Positions 4,624 to 32,944 of a stretch of DNA of 64,000 nt are shown in pieces. How positions within the stretch are numbered: position 1 is the stretch's first letter; every line of letters starts with the position of its first letter. This stretch comes from a virus (lineage: Duplodnaviria; Heunggongvirae; Uroviricota; Caudoviricetes): the IMG/VR virus record IMGVR_UViG_2645727901_000008. The stretch is one strand, 5' to 3'. Made by a program: the position numbers and the translations under genes. The notes below the pieces were generated by a model, which saw nothing but the letters and a program-made list of their open reading frames with translations, had not been told where the DNA came from and made no database searches.

Positions 4624-5411
4624 TCGATCACTCCGTTTTGAGTCGTATCAAAATTCCTGGCAGGTATGCAGTAGTAAAGCGAACCAACATGCTGTGTGCC
4701 GTAGCTAAAAATACGGTGCACGTACCACCAGCGGCGGGCTACGCCGTTTACCATCTCTTCATTCCATTCAAGAATTGATCCGACGGGGACGTTATTTGCT
4801 GCAATACGCAGAATCAGAACATCATCGGTTAAGCCATCCTGCTCACCGTCTGCGTCAATCGCATGGAAAGAGTCACGCCCGTCCGGGTTATCCAGCACAT
4901 AAACGATTTCAGGTTCCTGGTAAGTCAGTTCGCGCTGGTTGTTATCCAGTTCAGTGAATGACTCTTCTCCTGTTTCGTCGCTGACTACCCCATATGTGCC
5001 AACATCTGGTCGATATAAGAGAGCCTGAAACGCGTCTGGGCTGGATTCAATAATCAGCATCCAGTCTGCGCGGATTTGGTCGTTAAAGGCTTTATGCCCG
5101 TTATAGCGTGCTTTTAGCTGTGGAGTTGGTTCTCTGCCAGCCAGGGAAGGTGGAAGTATGGCTATATCTGATTCGGCAGCATCCGGAGTAAGGCCAGCGT
5201 TGCTATCAGCAAAATTATCATGGCTATCAGCTTTGGCGGCGGGTTGCTCTTCCAGAATGCTGAATGAATCCGAACCGGTATTGCCATGTTCCGGCGCGCC
5301 TCCTGCATTCGCTTCAATCGGCGCTGGCGTTTCTCTCTGCGTGCTGTCATGTTCTGACTCATTACTTGCCAGGTTTGCATCGTCAGCAAACCATTCGTCA
5401 AAACGGCCCAT
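4620..5411 (-). CDS. hypothetical protein, first gene of the baseplate-like operon
   Basis: ORF runs 4620..5453. Best RBS (GAGGA-N5-ATG) supports the internal start MGRFDEW at 5411. Confidence 0.4.
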   Translation of the reverse strand: MGRFDEWFADDANLASNESEHDSTQRETPAPIEANAGGAPEHGNTGSDSFSILEEQPAAKADSHDNFADSNAGLTPDAAESDIAILPPSLAGREPTPQLKARYNGHKAFNDQIRADWMLIIESSPDAFQALLYRPDVGTYGVVSDETGEESFTELDNNQRELTYQEPEIVYVLDNPDGRDSFHAIDADGEQDGLTDDVLILRIAANNVPVGSILEWNEEMVNGVARRWWYVHRIFSYGTQHVGSLYYCIPARNFDTTQNGVIE

Positions 5412-9824: not shown

Positions 9825-10448
9825 ATGAAGGATGGTGTAGTGAAGTTAAGGGTTTTAGGGGCCGCGCTCGCGGCTATGTTGGGATGCGTATCTGCTAATA
9901 CTGCCAATGCAACTGCGTTACCTGCACAATTCAGGGCAGGGCAGCAGGTTATGAATAATGCTGGTGGGGATCATTCACAAGCGGCCATTATGGACTTTTG
10001 CAAGAGGGAGGGCATTCCATTACGGCCTGTTGGAACTCAGTTTATTGGTAAAACTGACTTTTGCGTTTTTGCATATACAGCATATCTGACGGACAAAGCT
10101 ATAACAAAAACAGGTTATTCAACCAAAGATACTCTTTCCAGATTAAGTCAGGGATGGCAGCAATTCGAAGTGTATCGCCAGCAAGGATTAGGTGAGTTAT
10201 TGCAACCACTTTTTATGCTTGCGTTGGTGCCCGAGGGGCAGCAATTTTTGGTTAAAAAGGGAATGCTTCGCCAAAGTGATATTGCCGGGTTCGATAGCAT
10301 GATGGCTTATGAGCGCAAACTAACCGAGCAGCGAAATAAAAAACCATCTGCTTCATGTGTGCAAAGTAAAACAGCAGAATACAGTGCAGTAGCCGGGCCT
10401 TTAGCCAAACAAATGGCAGAGCAATGGTGTAAAAAATACGGGCAATAA
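9825..10448 (+). CDS. putative lipoprotein or secreted protein
   Basis: N-terminal signal peptide KLRVLGAALAAMLGC with a lipobox-like LGC. Possible GTG start at 9840 after an AAGGATGG RBS. Confidence 0.45.
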   Translation: MKDGVVKLRVLGAALAAMLGCVSANTANATALPAQFRAGQQVMNNAGGDHSQAAIMDFCKREGIPLRPVGTQFIGKTDFCVFAYTAYLTDKAITKTGYSTKDTLSRLSQGWQQFEVYRQQGLGELLQPLFMLALVPEGQQFLVKKGMLRQSDIAGFDSMMAYERKLTEQRNKKPSASCVQSKTAEYSAVAGPLAKQMAEQWCKKYGQ

Positions 10449-10468
10449 GTTACGCAGCGGAGGCAGAA

Positions 10469-10861
10469 TTGAAAAGATTGACTATTGCTTTACTGGCGTC
10501 TTTCCCTTTGATCGCGAGCGCCGGAAATTTACAAGTTAAGTGCGGTCGGTTTGATATAAAAATCTATCCAGATGCCATATTTCTGAATGGGAATAAGGTT
10601 GATAACGTACACCGAAAAACTAAATCTGACGTAATGAGCTATGTGTTCCAGGAGTATGCGGAGATGGGGGGAACTTACACGCTGTACTCGCTGGATGTTC
10701 CTTCTCGCGGTGATATGACATTATCCCATCAATGGCAGAACGCCGATGGCGAAGCTCTGCGCGAAGTTAAAACAGAAAAATGCGGCACTTTCCATTCTTT
10801 TAAAGGGAAAGTGCCAAATGTTAAATCTGTGCTTGAAAAACAGCGCGCAGGTGATTTTTAA
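10469..10861 (+). CDS. secreted protein (signal peptide), unknown function
   Basis: TTG start after a GCGGAGG RBS. MKRLTIALLASFPLIASA signal sequence. Confidence 0.45.
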   Translation: MKRLTIALLASFPLIASAGNLQVKCGRFDIKIYPDAIFLNGNKVDNVHRKTKSDVMSYVFQEYAEMGGTYTLYSLDVPSRGDMTLSHQWQNADGEALREVKTEKCGTFHSFKGKVPNVKSVLEKQRAGDF

Positions 10862-10883
10862 ACTGCGTTAGCACTTTGAACAT

Positions 10884-10928
10884 GGCGACAACACATCTTG
10901 GTGGCTGCGTTGTCGCTGTATGTTTTTA
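10884..10928 (+). terminator. rho-independent terminator after the secreted-protein genes
   Basis: GGCGACAAC...GTTGTCGC hairpin followed by TGTATGTTTTTA. Confidence 0.5.
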
Positions 10929-10949
10929 TAATATAAAGCATTAAAGTTT

Positions 10950-11567
10950 TCATTTTTGTCGGATCTTTTCCAGCATATTTAATTCATTATCACTTTCTGC
11001 TGCTGAGACGGTTGGCCTCACATTTCCGAAATATTTCCTGTGAGACTCATGACTTATGTATTCACCGACAGTTTCATTCTTGAATATACGAATTTGACAT
11101 ATGCGAGATCCAACAATAAGTTCTACAGGGCTATTCCCATGATTAAATAACTCTAAAGATATACAGCCTCTGTACCCTGGTTGTATCATGGTATTTAATG
11201 AAAGACCAAGCCTTGTATAGCTGCTTCTGGACAATACATCAGCGTAGCAATCTGGTGGCAAACAAACATATTCTAATGTTGTTGCCAGTACCACTTGATT
11301 CGGGTAAACAATGAATCTATCCCCAAGATCTCTCCTTGTTTCCTGGAAAAATGTTCTGATTGGTTGATGAGTATCATTGTTTTTTGATGGAATTAACTCT
11401 ATTGACGGCTTCCTTGTCATAATAGACACTAAAAAATCGTAACCAAGTCTAAGGTCTATGGTGAAGTTCCCAATTTGGTTTTTATTTAGAAGAGGTTCAA
11501 TGAACAACGACTCAGGTTCTTCTGATTCATAATATTGCAGCAATTCAGCTTTGCTTAGGAGATTCAT
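10950..11567 (-). CDS. dCTP deaminase (Dcd/dUTPase-fold) family protein with catalytic residues conserved
   Basis: Alignable by eye to E. coli Dcd: IDLRLGYDF ~ [44 protein letters not shown] ~ [49 protein letters not shown] ~ GWSGCIVLEFYNSG (RSS and the catalytic Glu are retained). GGAGTG RBS supports the MNLLSK start at 11567, which overlaps the upstream stop (ATGA). Confidence 0.65.
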   Translation of the reverse strand: [205 protein letters not shown]

Positions 11568-12637
11568 TGTGCACTCCATTTTTCAAGAATCATTACGTTT
11601 CGAATCGATTTTTCAACCAAATCATTTATAGTTTTTTCTATGGCTTCTTGTGACAACCCAGACCATATACCCGTAGGTTTTTCCCATTCAGAGCATAAGT
11701 ACTGCCAGCTGCTGTTAATAAAAGCATGCATTTCATTGTGGTCGCGAATAACAAAAGGACGCACATTATCAAAAGCTGATTTCACATCAAGCAAAGGTGT
11801 CGGCAATGTCAAACAAGGAGAAATAATCTGCCCACCATTATGTAAGGCTGATATCACAGCATTGAACATGCCAACAACTGGATTTTCCACTTTGTTCAAA
11901 AAGTCGCTTACAATTTTAACTCTATCTTCTGTGGATGGGTGAGTATAGCTTGCAGGATGAGAGCCAGCTAATTTGTATAAGAAATCTACCCCACTTTTTC
12001 CAATAAATTGGGCACTAAATAGATCTGCAAAATATTCTCTGCAATGATTTATCCAAATAACATCAGGTAGATTACTCCATTCTGGTCCAGGAAGTGTGCC
12101 TTTGTCCTTGGAACGATAGTTAAGACAGGCAAGCTCAGAAATACCTTTGCTAATATCAACGAAATGTCCCAATTCGTGATATAAAGGTATAGAGCATAAT
12201 GGTCGTCTTCTGTACATTTCAGGTAATGAAATCTGAATTAATTCGACATCGAATTTGACATTTAAAACTTCGTCAAATAAAGAATACAAATTCTTGTTTA
12301 CAGACTTAAAATAAAACCCATGCATATCTGGAGATAGGGCTGTGGTTATAAGTGTTTTTTCACTTATCCATTTTTTACAGGCATCATTTAAGCAATAGAC
12401 AATCTCGTAGGGAATTTTCTTTGTAGTACTGCCAGTGAAAAAATTAACTGCATCGGTGATAAAAAAAGTACAATCCGCAATTATTTTATCAGCAACATTC
12501 ACATGGTTTTCATAGAGCTTATCCACCGCTTCTTGTAGAACAGCAAGATATTCATGCATGTCTTTAGAAAAATAGGGAGATTCTGATATCTCCCTTAGCT
12601 TATTTCGAACTAATGTAAGTTGTGTAAATGCAAGCAT
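11564..12637 (-). CDS. ImmA/IrrE-family (M78) zinc metallopeptidase-like protein with extra N- and C-terminal regions
   Basis: HExxH (LYHELGHFVD) followed about 27 aa later by HCREYFADLFSAQF, resembling the E..AN.FA..LL third-ligand motif of ImmA/IrrE. AT-rich. Coupled to both neighbours (TAATG and ATGA overlaps). Confidence 0.55.
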   Translation of the reverse strand: MLAFTQLTLVRNKLREISESPYFSKDMHEYLAVLQEAVDKLYENHVNVADKIIADCTFFITDAVNFFTGSTTKKIPYEIVYCLNDACKKWISEKTLITTALSPDMHGFYFKSVNKNLYSLFDEVLNVKFDVELIQISLPEMYRRRPLCSIPLYHELGHFVDISKGISELACLNYRSKDKGTLPGPEWSNLPDVIWINHCREYFADLFSAQFIGKSGVDFLYKLAGSHPASYTHPSTEDRVKIVSDFLNKVENPVVGMFNAVISALHNGGQIISPCLTLPTPLLDVKSAFDNVRPFVIRDHNEMHAFINSSWQYLCSEWEKPTGIWSGLSQEAIEKTINDLVEKSIRNVMILEKWSAQ

Positions 12638-12942
12638 TAAATGTACTCTAATACATTCCGGGCCATTACGGGTTCTAACATATCTTCGCTAGTTACTTTG
12701 GTTAGCACCTGGGCGAGCGCCTTAGTGTGGCGTATCTCTACCGCGAGCGAGATGGACTCTCTGTGAGAAGGAATCTGTAATTGATCACCTTTATCTACAC
12801 TTAAGTTTGAGGCTTCTCTGATCACCTCATAAACCCGTAACTTTAACTGCTGTGACACTTCTTGTTGAGATGCTATAAGCTGAAGTACAGTCTTGATCAA
12901 CTTCAAAGAATCAGAAGCTTGCTGAGGAACCGCATAGAGCAT
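12637..12942 (-). CDS. small alpha-helical protein (101 aa), first gene of the peptidase-deaminase operon
   Basis: Strong AAAGGAGGGG RBS before ATG 12942. Stop overlaps the next start. Confidence 0.5.
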   Translation of the reverse strand: MLYAVPQQASDSLKLIKTVLQLIASQQEVSQQLKLRVYEVIREASNLSVDKGDQLQIPSHRESISLAVEIRHTKALAQVLTKVTSEDMLEPVMARNVLEYI

Positions 12943-13079
12943 AACCCCTCCTTTCCCTTATCTATAACCGCTTTCTTTTTTCTGTGTATGTTAAAAGTAG
13001 AAGCGGTTTTTACCTTTTGTAATATATATAGTGTCTAAAACTAACTTTGGCACTATATATGGCATGATATCTATGTTTT

Positions 13080-13121
13080 AAAGACACAAAAGCTCTGTTA
13101 AAACAGAGCTTTTGTGTCTTT
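13080..13121. other. near-perfect 20-bp inverted repeat hairpin (AAAGACACAAAAGCTCTGTT / AACAGAGCTTTTGTGTCTTT) between P1-like backbone and the accessory operon
   Basis: Read from the sequence. Confidence 0.6.
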
Positions 13122-13267
13122 AACTTGATCATTTTCTCGCTGAAGTGTATGTCAGGCTTAGCTCATAATCAAGTTGCTTCCAAGCTAAAAATGAGCTAGC
13201 TCCCTGAAACACTAAGAGCGGGGTGTTTCATTTATTAGCGTTGGGCCTGACGGTGTGTAGGTGAATT

Positions 13268-13555
13268 TTAGCTCATTACTCGATAACGACGGGGAATGGA
13301 ATTCTCCATCAGGCCACGAATTACTCCCGCCTCACGTAGTTCCTCTGTCTCCCAGTATCTGTTTGTCACCAGATCGAGGCTGGCTATGACCTTGTGCCGG
13401 TCATTCGGCATAGCTAATTTTTCTGCTATAACCATCAGTGAAAACTCTTCATCCAGTAGAATTTGATAGCAGTTTTTTGATAGTTCCACTTCCCTTATGA
13501 GACTGAAACGTCGCTGGATTGTGGCAGTAGAGTAAGTGAAATCTATTTTCTTCAT
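13268..13555 (-). CDS. hypothetical protein
   Basis: 95-aa ORF. Confidence 0.4.
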   Translation of the reverse strand: MKKIDFTYSTATIQRRFSLIREVELSKNCYQILLDEEFSLMVIAEKLAMPNDRHKVIASLDLVTNRYWETEELREAGVIRGLMENSIPRRYRVMS

Positions 13556-20911: not shown

Positions 20912-21356
20912 CTATCAAGAACTGCGCGAGGCGGCGGAACAGGCAACGCAAGATGAATGGGTAGCATATATTTTGCCGGGTCATAACGGCATTTATCCTG
21001 CGCGCACGTCTGAAGGTAGGCATTGCGGATACTTTATTGACTGGCCTGGCATTGATGGACAAAGGAATGCTGGTGCTAATGCCCGTTATATCGCGGCTAT
21101 CCCACCAAAAGTTGCACTGTCACTCCTAGGCGAAATTAAGCGCCTGGAGGACAAAAATATTGATGCCATGTGCCAAATTGCAGAGCTGGAGAGCAATCGC
21201 GCGGCGCTGGCGGCGGAGCATGGTATTCAGATTGCAATAAATGAACTGCTTGCTCTGGCCCCGCGTCTGGATAAACGAGCGATGGATGCACTCTCTGTGG
21301 CTGTGGAGCACCTGTGTAAACTGATTAAGAAGGAGGCAGTCAGTGAGCAAAATTAA
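20898..21356 (+). CDS. Ead/Ea22-like family protein (paralog 1)
   Basis: MSKINYQELREAAEQATQDEW is the characteristic Ea22-like N-terminus. GTG start. Confidence 0.55.
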   Translation: MSKINYQELREAAEQATQDEWVAYILPGHNGIYPARTSEGRHCGYFIDWPGIDGQRNAGANARYIAAIPPKVALSLLGEIKRLEDKNIDAMCQIAELESNRAALAAEHGIQIAINELLALAPRLDKRAMDALSVAVEHLCKLIKKEAVSEQN

Positions 21357-22023
21357 TTACCAGGCACTGCGTGAGGCGGCAGAAAAAGCACTACATGGTG
21401 AATGGGGTTACGAGGCAGGGGCAATCTGGAATACCTGTGATAGCGGCTATGTTCAGCACATGGCAGCGGTCGAGACTGGCGATGATGTTAGCGATGAAGA
21501 GCATATGAGCAATATGCGTTTTATCACGCTCGCCACGCCAACTGTTGTTCTTGGATTGCTTGATGAGCTTTCTGAAGCTAAAGCTGCCGAAGAGAATGAG
21601 TCCAGTTGTGCTAACAGCGTTATCGACATCGCTATCAACTGGCAGATGCGAGCCAAAGATGCAGAAGCCAAGCTGGAAGCCGCAGAGAAGCGCATTGCGG
21701 AACTGGAAACAAAAGCGAACCAGCAAACCAGAATAAGCGATAAGAATCTGACCAGGCTGATTGCCGATGCTGACAAAATGCTGGGTATGCGTTCGCCGGT
21801 TATAGACAGCGAGTGGTGGACGCTTTTACGGCAGTTCCTGATTGAACTTCAGGATCGCCGCAGAAACAGCATTTCTGAATCTGGAATCCGTGCTGAAACC
21901 CTGAATGATTTAATCCGACATATTGACAGAAACCTGGATATTGACGCGATGAAATCGCCGTTTGAACTGTCATCTGAAATTGTGGATTACGTTAATAGGC
22001 AACTGCACAAGGAGAATTCGTAA
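21343..22023 (+). CDS. Ead/Ea22-like family protein (paralog 2, longer, coiled-coil)
   Basis: MSKINYQALREAAEKALHGEW. Confidence 0.55.
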   Translation: MSKINYQALREAAEKALHGEWGYEAGAIWNTCDSGYVQHMAAVETGDDVSDEEHMSNMRFITLATPTVVLGLLDELSEAKAAEENESSCANSVIDIAINWQMRAKDAEAKLEAAEKRIAELETKANQQTRISDKNLTRLIADADKMLGMRSPVIDSEWWTLLRQFLIELQDRRRNSISESGIRAETLNDLIRHIDRNLDIDAMKSPFELSSEIVDYVNRQLHKENS

Positions 22024-22242
22024 TGCAGGTGGCATTTGTTGGCCTGTTACCGCATCCGATCCGCCTTTGGGCGGATATGTCACTCATAAAAACGCATTTT
22101 TTTACTACTGATGGCGGCATTCCGGCACCAAAGCGCCGTCATACCGGTATTGCAGCGGCACGACGAGCAGCAAAGAGACGCAGGAGAGCAAAGCGATGAA
22201 AAACCGTAAAGCAAATAAAGTGGCAAAACAGGAGGCGGCGCA

Positions 22243-22407
22243 GTGAACCAGCAAACCAGAATAAGCGATAAGAGCCTGACCAGACTGATTGCCGATGCGG
22301 ACAAGGTGCTGGAGCGGAACACACCCGTTGCCGATGAGGAATGGTGGCAGGATTTCCGGGCTGCAATGCTGGAACTTCAGGAACGTCGTCGGGAGGAGTT
22401 GAAGTGA
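22243..22407 (+). CDS. short ORF (54 aa) duplicating the C-terminal module of paralog 2
   Basis: Near-identical roughly 70-nt stretch to 21715..21785 (NQQTRISDK.LTRLIADAD). GGAGG RBS. GTGA coupling to the next gene. Confidence 0.35.
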   Translation: MNQQTRISDKSLTRLIADADKVLERNTPVADEEWWQDFRAAMLELQERRREELK

Positions 22408-22667
22408 GTGAATTAAAGTGTCGAATTAATGGCAATCAGATAGAACCGTGTGCGGTACTGGCAAAAGCACTCGAATATGGAAATCCAGCCTTTAAGAGTA
22501 AAGGCATATTTATCCCGGAACGCGTGAATATAAATACCGGCGAGCCAGGCTTAGACATTGCTCAAATTCACTCCGGCCAATATGTCGGTCGTGGTGTTGC
22601 CATGTGTTTTTGCCCGTTCTGTGGTGAAAGTCTGAAAACATGGAAAAAGGAGGCAACCAGTGAGTGA
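22404..22667 (+). CDS. small Cys-rich protein (paralog of 20612..20911)
   Basis: GGAGGAG RBS before GTG 22404. Motif FCPFCGESLKTW. Confidence 0.45.
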   Translation: MSELKCRINGNQIEPCAVLAKALEYGNPAFKSKGIFIPERVNINTGEPGLDIAQIHSGQYVGRGVAMCFCPFCGESLKTWKKEATSE

Positions 22668-23214
22668 AGTTAACTATCAGGCACTGCGTGAGGTGGCAGA
22701 GGCCGCGAAGGGGGATACGACGTGGCAGAACCTACAGGCTTTTCATGCTGCGGCAACGCTGGAGGTTGTGCAGGCGTTGCTGGATGAAAACGAAAGACTG
22801 TGTCGCGATCTGATAGCTCGTAATGGTGAGATTGAAGGGCTTCGGGAGTGGGCAGAAGAACTGGAGGCACGGGAAGTGGCTTTGCCAGTAGCGTCATGCA
22901 TTGTTGAAGATGGATGCATGTGTGTTGATGGGTTCAGTGAGTATGTAGGTCACTCGCTACCTGATGGAATGCATGAGCTTTATGCTGCCCCACCAGCGTC
23001 GGTAGTGCCGGAAGGACTAGTTAAAGCAGTGCGTTTCTATGAACAGGTAAAGTGTGAGAATCCGCCAGTCGAAACCGGAGCATGGAAAGACGCTATTGAC
23101 TGGGTGCTCAAAGAGGCTTGCCAGGCTGTAAACATTGGCATCAAAGGAGAGAGATATGGCAACTTTAACAAAAAAAGAACAAGCATGGTTGAACGAATTA
23201 CAGGACGTTCTTGA
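22660..23214 (+). CDS. Ead/Ea22-like family protein (paralog 3)
   Basis: MSEVNYQALREVAEAAKGDTTW. Confidence 0.5.
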   Translation: MSEVNYQALREVAEAAKGDTTWQNLQAFHAAATLEVVQALLDENERLCRDLIARNGEIEGLREWAEELEAREVALPVASCIVEDGCMCVDGFSEYVGHSLPDGMHELYAAPPASVVPEGLVKAVRFYEQVKCENPPVETGAWKDAIDWVLKEACQAVNIGIKGERYGNFNKKRTSMVERITGRS

Positions 23215-23419
23215 TCGCTGTCCGTCACCGAAAAAAATAGGCTTTTACACCATTGGCGATAAAAACATTTACCTGTATGACCTACGCCGCATGGATGTAA
23301 TCATGGAGGCTCTTGATAATCGTTCGTCGATGGATTGGTGTGCTGCTGTCCATGATATGAATGCCGGATTTGATGAAACGATTTTGTTCCCCTCATCAGT
23401 TGAAAGCACTGCGGGTTAA
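23156..23419 (+). CDS. hypothetical protein
   Basis: AAAGGAGAGAG RBS before ATG 23156. Confidence 0.4.
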   Translation: MATLTKKEQAWLNELQDVLDRCPSPKKIGFYTIGDKNIYLYDLRRMDVIMEALDNRSSMDWCAAVHDMNAGFDETILFPSSVESTAG

Positions 23420-23429
23420 GGAGTAACAC

Positions 23430-23813
23430 ATGACCACTATTACCAAAGAACGTATTGAATTGTTCATTAAAAATCCGCTTGAAAACGGACTTACCCGTGG
23501 CGAACAAATGGAACTGGCACGAATTGCACTGGCCTCGCTTGAGGCAGAGCCAGTTGGTGCATTCCACATTGCTGAACAGCAAGTTGACGGCACAAGTGAC
23601 TACATCAAGGATGGGGAGTGGCCTATTGATAATGGGACAATTGAAGTCTACGCCGCCCCGCCAGTACCGGTAGTACCTGCTGCATTACCTGAGAACGACG
23701 ATGAGGACGGGCAGGACATTGATTATCTTGAGCCATCTGAAGTTTACGCGCTTGGGCGAACAGCTGGCTGGAACGCCTGCCGTGCTGCCATGCTTAAGGG
23801 AGATAAATCATGA
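23430..23813 (+). CDS. hypothetical protein
   Basis: 127-aa ORF. Shares a YAAPP..VVP motif with paralog 3. Confidence 0.4.
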   Translation: MTTITKERIELFIKNPLENGLTRGEQMELARIALASLEAEPVGAFHIAEQQVDGTSDYIKDGEWPIDNGTIEVYAAPPVPVVPAALPENDDEDGQDIDYLEPSEVYALGRTAGWNACRAAMLKGDKS

Positions 23814-24181
23814 TTAATCGTACCAAGCTGGAGCACATCCTCGAATATGCCAGACAGCAGAAGCGCTTTGGTCAGCATTGCAAAATTCCGCCAGGAGATA
23901 TGGTTGAAATCGTGGAGATTGCCATGCGTAAGGCTGGCAACTATCCGGTAACTCCGGATAGTTGGATAAGCTGTAGTGATCGAATGCCTGAAAAGGGCCA
24001 GAACGTGCTTATTTCGGTGAATTTCGATAGCTCTCTGGTTGAACCGCTAATATGCTCCGCACGCTATACCGGAAGCACCTTTCGGCGCGGAGATGCAACG
24101 ATTAAGCCGGGTAATGGTATTGAGCAAGCAACTCACTGGATTCCGCTACCGGAACCGCCGCAGGAGGTTAACCGTGGCTAA
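23810..24181 (+). CDS. DUF551 domain protein
   Basis: WISCSDRMPEKGQ...THWIPLPEPP is the DUF551 signature, common in enterobacterial prophages. Confidence 0.55.
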   Translation: MINRTKLEHILEYARQQKRFGQHCKIPPGDMVEIVEIAMRKAGNYPVTPDSWISCSDRMPEKGQNVLISVNFDSSLVEPLICSARYTGSTFRRGDATIKPGNGIEQATHWIPLPEPPQEVNRG

Positions 24182-24455
24182 CCTGCAACTTGCCGTCAAA
24201 GGTGAATACTTCGATGCCATGATTCGCGGGGAGAAAACAGAAGAATATCGCCTGTGTAATGACTACTGGAATAAGCGAATTATGTTCCGGGAATATGACC
24301 GCCTGATTATCACAAAGGGATATCCGAAGCGCGACGATTCCAGTCGCAGAATAGACGTCCCGTATAACGGATATGAAATCAAGACAATCACACATCCGCA
24401 CTTCGGTGATAAACCGGTAAAGGTGTTCGCGATAAAAGTGAAGATTAATAGCTAA
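24174..24455 (+). CDS. ASCH/PUA-like domain protein (probable)
   Basis: GTG start. FDAMIRGEKTEEYRL resembles the ASCH core. Confidence 0.35.
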   Translation: MANLQLAVKGEYFDAMIRGEKTEEYRLCNDYWNKRIMFREYDRLIITKGYPKRDDSSRRIDVPYNGYEIKTITHPHFGDKPVKVFAIKVKINS

Positions 24456-24478
24456 ATTTCAATTAACACGGAGTAATT

Positions 24479-24772
24479 ATGTGGCGCGGTAATAATCATG
24501 GCGGAAGCCAGATGATACTTACCGAATATACGTTCGACCCCAAAACCTATAAATCACGTTCAGTATATTTGCTTCGGCACAATAGCCGCGTAAGGAATAC
24601 CGTGCTGGAGCAAAATCTGACCGTTGAAATGGATAATTTTGGGAACTTCAAGCCAACAATTGCGCTTGATGATTTTCCGCGTGGTTTAAGCGAAAGAGAA
24701 GCAATGCTGAAATTAGCAGAATGGCTACAAAGATTAAGCATTGCTATTGAAGATAACTGGTCTGAACCTTAA
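24479..24772 (+). CDS. hypothetical protein
   Basis: 97-aa ORF. Confidence 0.35.
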   Translation: MWRGNNHGGSQMILTEYTFDPKTYKSRSVYLLRHNSRVRNTVLEQNLTVEMDNFGNFKPTIALDDFPRGLSEREAMLKLAEWLQRLSIAIEDNWSEP

Positions 24773-24778
24773 ATTTAT

Positions 24779-25153
24779 ATGATGACACTAAAACATTTTC
24801 TTGACCGCCCATTATGGGCGGCAGCCGCAGGCTATGATTTTAATTATATGGATTGCATGTCTTATACTGCCAATGCATACGACCATTCGTTCAGCCTGCT
24901 GTTTAATTCTTTAAGAATATTGCCGGAAACAGAAGTTGGAGAGCTTCATTTATGGCTATTGGGTTTTATCGCGGCTGTCGTTGGTATTGCTGTATGGCCT
25001 TTTATTTTCTGGCTGGTGGCTGTTGTAGTGTGGTTTAAGTGCAAGACATACCGGAAAAAGTATTTCTTAGGTGATGGAATGACTGATATTGCCAAAATGA
25101 ACATTGAAAAATGGACTAAGGAATGTGAAAAGAAATGGCGCAAAAAGAAATGA
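24779..25153 (+). CDS. membrane protein
   Basis: TM segments LWLLGFIAAVVGIAVWPFIFWLVAVVVWF. Confidence 0.4.
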   Translation: MMTLKHFLDRPLWAAAAGYDFNYMDCMSYTANAYDHSFSLLFNSLRILPETEVGELHLWLLGFIAAVVGIAVWPFIFWLVAVVVWFKCKTYRKKYFLGDGMTDIAKMNIEKWTKECEKKWRKKK

Positions 25154-25758
25154 CCAGAATCACTGAAGAGCGTATATCAGAGATTATTTCCCGTATCGAA
25201 ATGTATGGTCACGGAGCTGGATATACGGCAGATGAAGTATTGGAAATAGCCCAGCAGATGCTGGCCTTGAGACAAAAAGAGCAACATGAAAGTAATACGT
25301 GTAGATTGAATTTTGAGCAGTGGCTGGAACAGCAACGCGGGAAAATCGATGTGGACTGTGGTTGTGTGTCCACTGAAACATTCATGCACTGGCTGCGGGT
25401 AGCTTACGAGGCTGGCAACTATCCGGATATTCCGGATAGTTCGGCGCAAGCACCAGGGAAGGGGGGGTTCCCCGGAGAGCGGATCCGAATTAAGCCGCAT
25501 GTTTACCGTGAACTGGTTAACCGCCTCCACGATACAGCGATCAAGTGTGCTGGCACCCAGCAATTACGGGAAAGAATTAGCCGCGTTTTGGGCGAAGTTA
25601 TTACACCAGATCGTCATAAACAAGCCGAGAAAAGCGGCCTGGAAAGGAGTCATCTTGAGGCGGCATTAAACATTAAACCGGGGCATACGCTAGGTGTCAT
25701 TGATGCCATGTTGGTTCATGAAATGGCTAAGGCGTTATTGCCACTGGAGGCTGATTAA
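25135..25758 (+). CDS. hypothetical protein sharing its C-terminal domain with the DUF4406 protein
   Basis: KPHVYRELVNRLHDTAIKCAGTQQLRERISRVLGEV aligns with HIYRELVNALRDVAIECHGTDQLRARLSQTL (16419..17042). Confidence 0.45.
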   Translation: MAQKEMTRITEERISEIISRIEMYGHGAGYTADEVLEIAQQMLALRQKEQHESNTCRLNFEQWLEQQRGKIDVDCGCVSTETFMHWLRVAYEAGNYPDIPDSSAQAPGKGGFPGERIRIKPHVYRELVNRLHDTAIKCAGTQQLRERISRVLGEVITPDRHKQAEKSGLERSHLEAALNIKPGHTLGVIDAMLVHEMAKALLPLEAD

Positions 25759-25794
25759 ATTCCGGATAAAGCTGATATCTGATCACCATGCTAA

Positions 25795-30079: not shown

Positions 30080-30420
30080 CGACGCCCCCTTGCAGGATAT
30101 CGACCTGCATCAGTATCCGGTGCGATAAAGCCGGTAGTGGGGCGAGTGAAAGCGAGATTAATCTTCTCGACCATAGTGCGATAATTTTCCTGATAGTGGG
30201 CCAGGAGTTTTTCGGCGGCAATGATGGTTACTTTCCGGACGTAGCTTTCTGCTTCCTCCAGATTTCGCCAGTTTTTTTCGAGGGTAAACACAGGGACGGC
30301 CTCAAGCCCGGTCATGATGCCGAATACAACGACAGCATGACTGTTCTTAACACCAGCAGCGAAGGTTACGGTGTAACCATCCACCTTAAAGCGTCTTGAT
30401 TCCGTGATTTGACTCTGCAA
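30076..30420 (-). CDS. hypothetical protein, first gene downstream of the cre homolog
   Basis: TTG start with GGAGGG RBS. A motif site lies immediately upstream. Confidence 0.4.
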   Translation of the reverse strand: MQSQITESRRFKVDGYTVTFAAGVKNSHAVVVFGIMTGLEAVPVFTLEKNWRNLEEAESYVRKVTIIAAEKLLAHYQENYRTMVEKINLAFTRPTTGFIAPDTDAGRYPARGRR

Positions 30421-30478
30421 AGCACCCTCCGAAATAGGCGAGGGTACTTTACAGCAAAGATAACAATCTAAAAAGATG

Positions 30479-30493
30479 TGTTAGAAATTTAAT
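30479..30493. promoter_or_regulatory. recurrent motif TGTTAGAAATTTAAT between the cre-like stop and the 30420 gene
   Basis: Motif family member. Confidence 0.45.
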
Positions 30494-31522
30494 TTATGAA
30501 TCCATCAGGCGGCTATTAGCCCCCACAGACACGCCGCCACGGCGCAGATACCGCATAAGTGTTTCCGGTTTCTTCCAGGTTCCTTCCTGCATGATCTCCA
30601 CCATAGACACCTGCTTTTCAGCCATATCGATAGCGGCCCCGACACGAGCACTATGCCCGGTCCACGTCCGGTATCTCCCTTTGTTTGGCGTGGCATCTCT
30701 TTTATTCAGCAACACCCAGGCGTCGCTGAATATTTTCTCCATTGCAGGTGCAGTAAGGGGAGTTGTCGTAATCCTGGCCTTATTGCTACGGTGTATCGGC
30801 GGGAACAGCACCGCGTCAGGATGTTCACGAAGCCCGGAAACATCCAGCCAGTCATTCAGCACTGCGGTAGTGCGACGGGAAAGCACCTTATCAAGCCCGG
30901 CGGCGGTCGTTATTGTCTTCGTGTGTGAAATATGTAGCGTGACAGTGTCACCTGTTTGGTCCAGATCTCCTACACGAATACGCGAGATTTCAGACATTCG
31001 CATCAGCGTATTGTATGCAACGAAGAGGAAAGCCCGGTTACGCAGGTCCACCAGCCGTTCTGACCTGGACAACAGGACGTCGAGCAGTTTCAGATCGTCC
31101 CACCGCAGCGGTATAGCCTGGCCTGTTCGTTCGCCTTTTTCCGTTGCCGCTTCGCGCCGGATGCGCCGCATAGCCAGAGAAACACTTTTATCATCCGAAA
31201 GTGGCGGAAGGCCACAATGCGAAAGCAGCATGTTAAGCATGGCGTAGTGCTTATCAATGGTGGTCGAAGCCAGATCAGCATCATGCAGCTGAAGAAAATA
31301 CTCGCGGGCCATCTCTGGTGAGATCGGGAACCAAGCGAGCTGGCGAGCGTGGCACCATCGCGCCCAGGAGTGAAACACTAACCGGAGATCGCGCAAAGTA
31401 TTCGGCGCGTAAGCCCCCTGGTCATTCATGAACCGCATAAAGTTTTCTGCGGCCTCCTGGTACTCTTTGCCAATGTTGCGCAGAAAACCACCGGAGCTGC
31501 CAGAGATAATTAATTCACTCAT
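30494..31522 (-). CDS. cre: Cre-family tyrosine site-specific recombinase (P1 Cre homolog)
   Basis: Alignable to P1 Cre along the whole length: VSLAMRRIRRE vs VSLVMRRIRKE; AFLFVAYNTLMRMSEISRIRVGDL vs AFLGIAYNTLLRIAEIARIRVKDI; WTGHSARVGAAIDMA vs WSGHSARVGAARDMA; IMQEGTW vs IMQAGGW. The catalytic R..H..R..Y context is retained. Confidence 0.85.
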   Translation of the reverse strand: MSELIISGSSGGFLRNIGKEYQEAAENFMRFMNDQGAYAPNTLRDLRLVFHSWARWCHARQLAWFPISPEMAREYFLQLHDADLASTTIDKHYAMLNMLLSHCGLPPLSDDKSVSLAMRRIRREAATEKGERTGQAIPLRWDDLKLLDVLLSRSERLVDLRNRAFLFVAYNTLMRMSEISRIRVGDLDQTGDTVTLHISHTKTITTAAGLDKVLSRRTTAVLNDWLDVSGLREHPDAVLFPPIHRSNKARITTTPLTAPAMEKIFSDAWVLLNKRDATPNKGRYRTWTGHSARVGAAIDMAEKQVSMVEIMQEGTWKKPETLMRYLRRGGVSVGANSRLMDS

Positions 31523-31672
31523 GAAACTATTTAACCTCTATATACAGATGACGCTACGCAAAAATATAAAAATGACAGGGTAGCTATAAGTTAATTTTCA
31601 AAATTCAAGCCTTTGATTCGAGGCACGTATTTTTAGTGATGTCAACACTGATCATCTACCCATGATTATAGT

Positions 31673-31706
31673 CTAACTTTAAATAATGCCAATTATCTAA
31701 AGTTAG
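31673..31706. other. lox-like recombination site: CTAACTTTAAATA-ATGCCAAT-TATCTAAAGTTAG (13-bp arms, 12/13 symmetric, 8-bp asymmetric spacer)
   Basis: Sits 150 bp upstream of the cre-like start. Arms share TAACTT...ATA with loxP arms (ATAACTTCGTATA). Confidence 0.6.
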
Positions 31707-31878
31707 AAACTTAGGAATTTTTTTCCTTTCCCCGTAGATGGGCAATGCATTGCTGGCGTGGGCTTTAAGTTATGCCTGGCAGTTTTTAAGCAGAATTTTC
31801 TAAATTGGATGACAAAAAAATGCATCTTGATCCTTTACTCACCCTGTTATTCGGCATAGATTTGTCATAGTAATTTTA

Positions 31879-31893
31879 TGTTAGAAAACTAAA
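31879..31893. promoter_or_regulatory. recurrent motif TGTTAGAAAACTAAA immediately upstream of the RBS of the 31907 gene
   Basis: Motif family member. Confidence 0.45.
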
Positions 31894-31906
31894 TCGAGTA
31901 GGAATA

Positions 31907-32944
31907 ATGAGTAAGAAGTCGATCGAGAAAGAGTACAAACGGTTCCTGCAAACCGCTGAACGGTGGAAAGAGCTGGTGGTCGCAAACTCTGTTTTCCATG
32001 ATACCAGTTATGCCGGCGAGGAATTCCGCCACGTTGCACTAACACATGATCAGAATGTACTAGAAGAAGCTGAAAAGTGCCTCACAGAATGGAAAGCCTT
32101 TGTTGACTTGTGCCGTAACGCTGACGGCAAAGCGTCCAACATTGTTGAGTCTGTATATTCTCCGATCCCATTCATTATTGAGGACACAAATCAAAGCACG
32201 CATATTGTTGTGCAAAGCGCGACCACCACCCGCTCATTTACGCGCGAAAATCTGCTCAAAAAATATGATGCAATTATAAAGAAAAGCCTGAAAAACAAGA
32301 TATTTTCGCAGATTGTTGGTGCACTTGAAGAAGAGCGCCGTTTTTTCGCATCAGAACCTGAAGGGGAAGTTTACCGGGCGCGCAAAGATGGATACACAGA
32401 TGTAGTGCTTACAACAAACATTGAAGGCAGCAATGCTCTGTCACGATTCAGGGTAGGCGCACACGGAGCCTTAGTGTTCGCAAAACTTCCGAACACCACA
32501 GTGCCCGTTGTTAATAATGTCGGCGAACGTCGCAGCATTACTATTTATTCTGGGGTTGAGTCGATACCTTGCGGCCTGCTTGGTGACTTTAGCCTCTATC
32601 GCGTTCGCGATCTGGAGAAACACCAACCAAGCTATGTTGCGAAGTCATATATCTTGCGAAACATCGACATCCGCAATGAGAGCTTAAAGAACAAATCAGC
32701 CAAAATGCTTGAGGAAGCCGATCCGGCTATTCGCCATATCATTGAGCGTAAAATACAGACAGCACGCGAAGCGATGGCGAGACTGAATAAAATGGATCTG
32801 GAGTTGTTAGACGTAATGATGACATCCGGAGATGACCTGACAGGCATAAAACTGACAGACGCGCGGAAAAGATACGGTAAAACCATAGAAGAACGTTACG
32901 GGTTCACTTTCTCCCAAACACAGCACGCCGCTAAACTCTGGTAA
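31907..32944 (+). CDS. hypothetical protein at the position of the P1 immunity (c1) gene, between the lox site and pacB; candidate regulator
   Basis: 345-aa ORF with GAGTAGGA RBS. No similarity to P1 C1 detectable by eye, so the call is positional only. Confidence 0.4.
   Translation: MSKKSIEKEYKRFLQTAERWKELVVANSVFHDTSYAGEEFRHVALTHDQNVLEEAEKCLTEWKAFVDLCRNADGKASNIVESVYSPIPFIIEDTNQSTHIVVQSATTTRSFTRENLLKKYDAIIKKSLKNKIFSQIVGALEEERRFFASEPEGEVYRARKDGYTDVVLTTNIEGSNALSRFRVGAHGALVFAKLPNTTVPVVNNVGERRSITIYSGVESIPCGLLGDFSLYRVRDLEKHQPSYVAKSYILRNIDIRNESLKNKSAKMLEEADPAIRHIIERKIQTAREAMARLNKMDLELLDVMMTSGDDLTGIKLTDARKRYGKTIEERYGFTFSQTQHAAKLW

Follow-up and report, generated by a model that had tools for sequence, protein, structure and literature searches.

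The window, by which we mean the whole 64,000-nt (64-kb) stretch of viral DNA that was analysed, almost certainly carries the Dre/rox recombination module of a D6-type, P1-related phage-plasmid of Enterobacteriaceae; within this reading, the role in multimer resolution and the activity of the T24C form of the site are what we infer. The features of the locus are collected in Table 1.

Table 1. Features of the dre-rox-c1 locus, in window coordinates
Feature	Position	Strand	Basis or remark
dre, 342-aa Cre-family tyrosine recombinase	30494..31522	-	ORF; protein identical to D6 Dre
Candidate sigma-70 promoter for dre	31665..31692	-	consensus scan, 11/12
Extended palindrome, 16-4-16, one mismatch	31672..31707		repeat search
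rox site, natural allele	31674..31705	+	32 bp: 14-bp inverted arms and 4-bp asymmetric core GCCA
T-to-C change relative to canonical rox (T24C)	31697	+	position 24/32, 9th from the outer end of the c1-side arm
Hypervariable patch abutting the c1-side rox arm	31707..31800		travels with the c1 allele
c1 repressor homolog, allele unlike that of D6	31907..32944	+	345 aa; c1 annotated in AY753669 and MF356679

Identity of the recombinase and its site

The intergenic region spans 384 nt (31523-31906), from the recombinase start at 31522 on the minus strand to the start of the next gene at 31907 on the plus strand. The preliminary description had placed a lox-like 13-8-13 site here, 150 bp upstream of a recombinase about 40% identical to Cre and in the recombinase-adjacent intergenic region as in P1, and had noted that the motif TAACTT..ATA is common to its arms and those of loxP. 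All of this was borne out: direct reading of the sequence gave CTAACTTTAAATA-ATGCCAAT-TATCTAAAGTTAG at 31673-31706, between dre and c1 and upstream of the recombinase gene, with an arm symmetry of 12/13 and 150 nt between the site and the recombinase ATG; the shared arm motif was present, and alignment of the protein with Cre contained 132 identities in 323 columns (40.9%). A repeat search found a palindrome longer than the 13-8-13 repeat described earlier, with arms of 16 nt each (31672-31687 and 31692-31707) that are 94% complementary and lie 4 nt apart. The extra symmetric base pairs, TC...GA, that flank rox were found in the window haplotype only, whereas the D6 flanks, C...T, are non-complementary. 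When the 384-nt region was resampled with a first-order Markov model, a 13-8-13 inverted repeat with at most one mismatch arose in 22 of 20,000 resamples and a 14-4-14 inverted repeat in 4 of 20,000; the rox palindrome is not attributable to chance.

We defined rox by the GenBank feature and by PMC4777119. The annotated rox of AY753669 (record positions 4909-4940), TAACTTTAAATAATGCCAATTATTTAAAGTTA, is the same as the wild-type rox quoted in PMC4777119 and is identical at 31 of 32 positions to window 31674-31705. The window allele reads TAACTTTAAATAATGCCAATTATCTAAAGTTA; its core GCCA and its left arm match the canonical site, and the sole change is T24C in the right arm. According to the passages of PMC4777119 that cite Sauer and McDermott 2004, rox as published has 14-bp arms and a 4-bp asymmetric core, while Karimova et al. 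align it in a loxP-like 13-8-13 frame (PMC4957104). Since mutational evidence points to a functional crossover stretch in rox of about the same length as in loxP (PMC4777119), the 13-8-13 parse is an acceptable alternative for the same DNA. The earlier 13-8-13 parse is therefore one of two legitimate readings (PMC4957104), the published one being 14-4-14 (PMC4777119). With up to three mismatches allowed, the rox pattern occurs once in the 64-kb window and in none of 100 shuffles, and no further rox copy or half-site (at most two mismatches) was found elsewhere in the 64 kb.

The window recombinase is identical at 342 of 342 residues to Dre AAV84949.1 (AY753669) and to D6_118/ASR76376.1 (MF356679). 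This was the outcome that the preliminary description had itself set against its claim, namely that the recombinase would prove identical to a Cre-family enzyme already on record whose target is known; here that enzyme is Dre AAV84949.1. The protein matched the Pfam family Phage_integrase (PF00589) at 62.6 bits, above the cutoff of 27.1, and residues 22-341 aligned to the Cre crystal-structure chains (E=5e-69). Because this alignment is full-length, a two-domain C-clamp fold as in the Cre-loxP crystals is very likely; a PDB search found no structure of Dre. The active site R-K-H-R-W/H-Y is present, with all six Cre catalytic residues conserved: R175, K202, H290, R293, W316, and Y325 align with R173, K201, H289, R292, W315, and Y324 of Cre. 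With the exception of the lysine, the catalytic residues given for Dre in PMC4777119 match this set. At positions that Karimova et al. tied to the discrimination of rox/pox from loxP (K43, R259, and G263 in Cre; PMC4957104), the window protein has R44, P259, and K263, which are the Dre/Panto type.

At the nucleotide level, dre differs from the D6 gene at 33 of 1029 positions (dS 0.147), 30 at third and 3 at first codon positions, and all 33 differences are synonymous with 0 non-synonymous. Most natural Dre copies in IMG/VR carry 0-3 amino acid changes. As judged from such substitutions, dre is under strong purifying selection, unusually tight relative to the neighbouring genes, for which omega against D6 is 0.03-0.19.

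A megablast search of 30400-32000 against phage records returned matches solely to Escherichia phage D6, namely the 'immC region' record AY753669 (100% coverage, 93.6% identity) and the complete genome MF356679/NC_050154. The D6 features under the match are annotated 'dre: tyrosine recombinase', 'c1', and 'region of crossover (rox) site for Dre recombinase'. The order dre-rox-c1-pacB-pacA is common to the window and D6, and rox has the same position and orientation in both, between dre and c1. Beyond this locus, collinearity between the window and D6 extends from about 61.9 kb of the D6 genome, across the rox junction at which the D6 record was linearised, to about 32.2 kb, and the window is therefore a D6-type phage-plasmid. 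The D6 HSPs cover 53.3 of the 64 kb; most of them are 92-97% identical, and a few short ones are 72-88% identical. Relative to D6, the window differs in T24C in the c1-side arm, the two additional symmetric flanking base pairs, the 33 silent changes in dre, the c1 allele (84% nucleotide identity), and a patch of about 100 bp beside rox. The largest stretches without a D6 counterpart by blastn lie at 9883-13331 and 20930-25409, and presumably represent cargo or variable DNA by which this element and D6 are distinguished.

The closest plasmid was E. coli NZ_CP122510.1, at 99.4% identity. Matches were found in 146 PLSDB plasmids, 125 of which contain the greater part of the locus, and in 126 of 5426 complete E. 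coli genomes, 109 of which match at least 80% of the query. D6-type plasmids are thus carried by about 2% of complete E. coli genomes.

The c1 boundary and a candidate promoter within rox

The c1-side arm of rox is the exact point at which divergence from D6 rises abruptly. Identity to D6-type loci is 92-97% in the 150 nt left of the site, as opposed to 59-64% in the approximately 100-110 nt to its right, where the hypervariable patch lies; this patch is probably a c1 control region. The c1 gene itself differs from that of D6 at 166 of 1038 nucleotides (dS 0.94), with 311 of 345 residues identical. The match of its product to the NCBIfam model phage_rep_C1 was weak (23 bits against a cutoff of 500). 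Across 22 loci, the left and right flanks of rox reassort: L022 has the dre closest to that of the window (98.9%) yet a D6-type c1 side, and L010 has a divergent dre (80% nucleotide identity) yet a window-type c1 side (92-95%). This reassortment marks rox as a junction between a backbone module and an immunity cassette. The C allele of rox accompanies the window-type c1 side, with L034 as the exception, and in this set of loci T24C goes together with the haplotype on the c1 side. A search of the window for the P1 C1 operator consensus ATTGCTCTAATAAATTT, with up to three mismatches allowed, gave no match, and a P1-type pac cluster of TGATCA/G hexamers is absent from pacA and from the rest of the window; the C1 operators and the pac site of D6-type elements must therefore differ from those of P1.

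The consensus scan also placed a candidate promoter for dre across the site. Its -35 hexamer TTGGCA (31692..31687) falls in the rox core plus neighbouring bases, its -10 hexamer TATAAT lies at 31670..31665, and the 16-nt spacer consists of the left arm of rox plus 3 nt. In the 64-kb window it is the only sigma-70 match scoring at least 11/12, and it is the sole promoter-like site in 31400-32000. An Rfam scan of 31300-32100 (E<=1) gave no match. A tentative proposal, compatible with the Dre/rox identification, is that rox doubles as an operator, so that rox-bound Dre would occlude the -35 hexamer and the spacer and thereby autoregulate its own gene. The uniqueness of the match, its orientation on the dre strand, and the placement of the -10 hexamer just 3 nt outside the left arm speak for this proposal, as does the invariance of that hexamer, at the same distance from rox, in 34 of 34 rox-bearing sequences, including three lineages that have 14-20 changes in the 40-nt flank and Dre proteins 70-94% identical. 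In P1, by comparison, none of the three annotated cre promoters overlaps lox, and all are situated 100-420 bp beyond it, whereas rox overlaps the best promoter match; a promoter embedded in rox would therefore be a feature of the D6 clade. However, the candidate is a consensus match whose 11/12 score was equalled by 37 of 2000 shuffles of the intergenic region (1.85%), and contacts that Dre makes just outside its site could instead account for the 9 nt conserved beside rox. The sites of the Rosenbergiella and Pantoea homologs moreover lack the arrangement, and the -35 hexamer scores only 3/6 in the natural core variant CCCC. A literature search for promoters or autoregulation embedded in rox or loxP returned nothing relevant. 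We regard a rox-embedded, Dre-repressible promoter as a plausible prediction for the D6 clade; if it is real, users of rox in bacteria should expect outward transcription from the site that Dre can repress.

Joining these observations, we put forward, as a speculation that is more doubtful than the identification of the module, that rox would act as the crossover site, as the part of the dre promoter (-35 element and spacer) through which Dre would set its own level, and as the junction at which backbone and c1 reassort between co-resident plasmids, an exchange that Dre itself may carry out. T24C would then be a marker of the c1 side and not a defect.

Natural variation at arm position 9

The position changed in the window allele is equivalent to A25/T10 of loxP, and it lies inside the three-base block that separates the rox arms from those of loxP (PMC4957104, Fig. 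7 legend); because of this location, T24C may affect the affinity of Dre. To survey its occurrence, IMG/VR was scanned with a pattern in which arm positions 8-9 and the core were left free. The scan returned 32 contigs, of which 21 had canonical rox, 9 the C allele of the window, and 2 core variants; every one of the nine C alleles is in the c1-side arm. A metagenome scan of 16 contigs gave 11 T and 5 C alleles. Identical Dre proteins were found beside the T allele (L001, L003, L006, L013, L019, L032, and L034) as well as beside the C allele (the window, L011, L033, L052, and L061), and the Dre proteins beside the C allele range from 89% to 100% identity. We found no co-variation of Dre residues with the rox allele. 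Across the rox-like family, all four bases occur at arm position 9. In native pox, too, the two arms differ at the position altered in the window allele; its A was changed to T to make the site symmetric before it was used (PMC4957104, Fig. 1 legend and supplement). The exact T24C sequence had no match in the searchable literature.

Since the allele is common, stands beside identical Dre, and falls at a position that varies in pox and in rox-like sites, T24C is probably a tolerated natural polymorphism at the least-constrained position of the arm. We consider it improbable that T24C marks a weakened or inactive rox, whether as a decaying resolution site or as a poor partner of canonical rox. 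The change does break the perfect arm symmetry of the canonical site and falls within the rox/loxP specificity block (PMC4957104), but the allele is common on several backgrounds (9/32 IMG/VR and 5/16 metagenome contigs), the adjoining dre is intact and under purifying selection, and position 9 is naturally asymmetric in pox, in Rosenbergiella, and in Ca. Pantoea borealis. The core that determines the recombination partner (GCCA) is also unchanged. Taken as a tolerated polymorphism, a natural change at arm position 9 of rox would be useful in the design and screening of pseudo-rox sites.

The scans also returned sites outside the T and C alleles of D6-type rox. A rox-like site with T/C at position 9 lies beside a Dre homolog of 42% identity in Rosenbergiella collisarenosi (L039:3211-3240), and another with T/A at position 9 lies beside a homolog of 55% identity in Ca. 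Pantoea borealis (L044:4961-4990); these loci are possible further Dre/Panto-like pairs. The natural core variants are CCCC (L021:12405-12436), which stands beside a Dre of 99.4% identity and could be a sequencing error, and GCTA (L009:3706-3737), beside a Dre homolog of 70% identity. Given their changed cores, both should be incompatible with canonical rox. Loose pattern matches in Lactobacillus, Clostridia, Chitinophagaceae, and an uncultured bacterium had no Dre homolog nearby and were set aside as chance AT-rich palindromes. A match in Mixta tenebrionis likewise had no Dre homolog nearby, but its site is 182 nt from the end of the locus.

Relation to Cre/loxP and Panto/pox, and proposed role

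Dre shares its enzyme family and catalytic residues with the Cre of P1, at about 41% full-length identity. The neighbourhoods are alike, with c1 and pacAB on one side of the site and the recombinase on the other, and the arms of loxP and of the window rox have TAACTT..ATA in common. The systems differ in that the loxP arms carry CGT where rox has TAA, and in that loxP has a 13-8-13 layout and another core. In P1, about 420 bp separate lox from cre, a stretch that holds cra and three promoters, whereas rox in the window is 150 nt from dre. The window site does not read ATAACTTCGTATA-8-TATACGAAGTTAT, differing in the arm triplet and in the core, and its recombinase, at 40.9% identity, is a homolog of Cre. 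Dre and Cre are heterospecific (PMC4777119). A closer relative is Panto/pox of Pantoea sp. aB, in which the pox arms are one nucleotide from those of rox (PMC4957104). Panto is 52% identical to Dre, and each enzyme acts on the site of the other, Dre recombining pox and Panto recombining rox; because their cores differ, there is no recombination between rox and pox (PMC4957104).

The mechanism follows that of Cre/loxP: each 14-bp arm of rox is bound by one Dre monomer, and two rox sites form a synapse with a Dre tetramer. Tyr325 cleaves the DNA, and strands are exchanged across the asymmetric core via a Holliday junction. In P1, Cre/loxP recombination resolves multimers of the plasmid and helps it to be inherited stably (PMC2409434). 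Recombination at rox would likewise convert plasmid multimers to monomers for stable inheritance, and infecting DNA may be circularised at rox; multimer resolution or cyclization would thus be a reasonable role for Dre/rox in D6-type plasmids. Efficient recombination by Dre at rox is documented in E. coli and in mammalian cells (PMC4777119, PMC4957104), and Dre would be expected to act on the T24C allele as well.

The preliminary description judged the kind of system rightly, a Cre homolog with its own lox-like site on a phage-plasmid, and erred on its novelty, since the parts are Dre and rox. Its proposal of a new orthogonal Cre/lox pair for genome engineering, that is, a divergent recombinase with an undescribed target, draws on the roughly 41% identity to Cre and on a site distinct from loxP, but is practically excluded by a protein identical to Dre (342/342) and a site matching rox at 31/32, both deposited in 2004 (AY753669) and widely used, and by the earlier detection of Dre/rox in E. 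coli genome assemblies by Karimova et al. (PMC4957104). Dre/rox was published in 2004 and has been taken up broadly (PMC4777119, PMC4957104). From these sequence identities, the window holds a natural allelic form of an already known system and not a new Cre/lox pair. It therefore represents a rediscovery and adds no new genome-engineering tool, Dre/rox having been routine since 2004-2009.

Inverted repeats of lox geometry at 2174, 13078, and 25791 were considered as secondary Dre sites and discarded, as they have no similarity to rox. The repeat at 2174-2207 is a 13-8-13 inverted repeat with one mismatch, TGTGTTAGAAAAT-TCTATTCA-ATTATCTAACACA, unrelated to rox; by coordinate, it maps to a D6 intergenic gap at about 64.1 kb, between orf65 and orf66, and it may be a regulatory operator. 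At 13078-13123 we found a perfect hairpin with a 21-bp stem and a 4-nt loop, TTAAAGACACAAAAGCTCTGT-TAAA-ACAGAGCTTTTGTGTCTTTAA, where no ORF of at least 50 aa is listed; this could be a terminator-like structure or a protein-binding palindrome. The inverted repeat at 25791 looks like a terminator hairpin.
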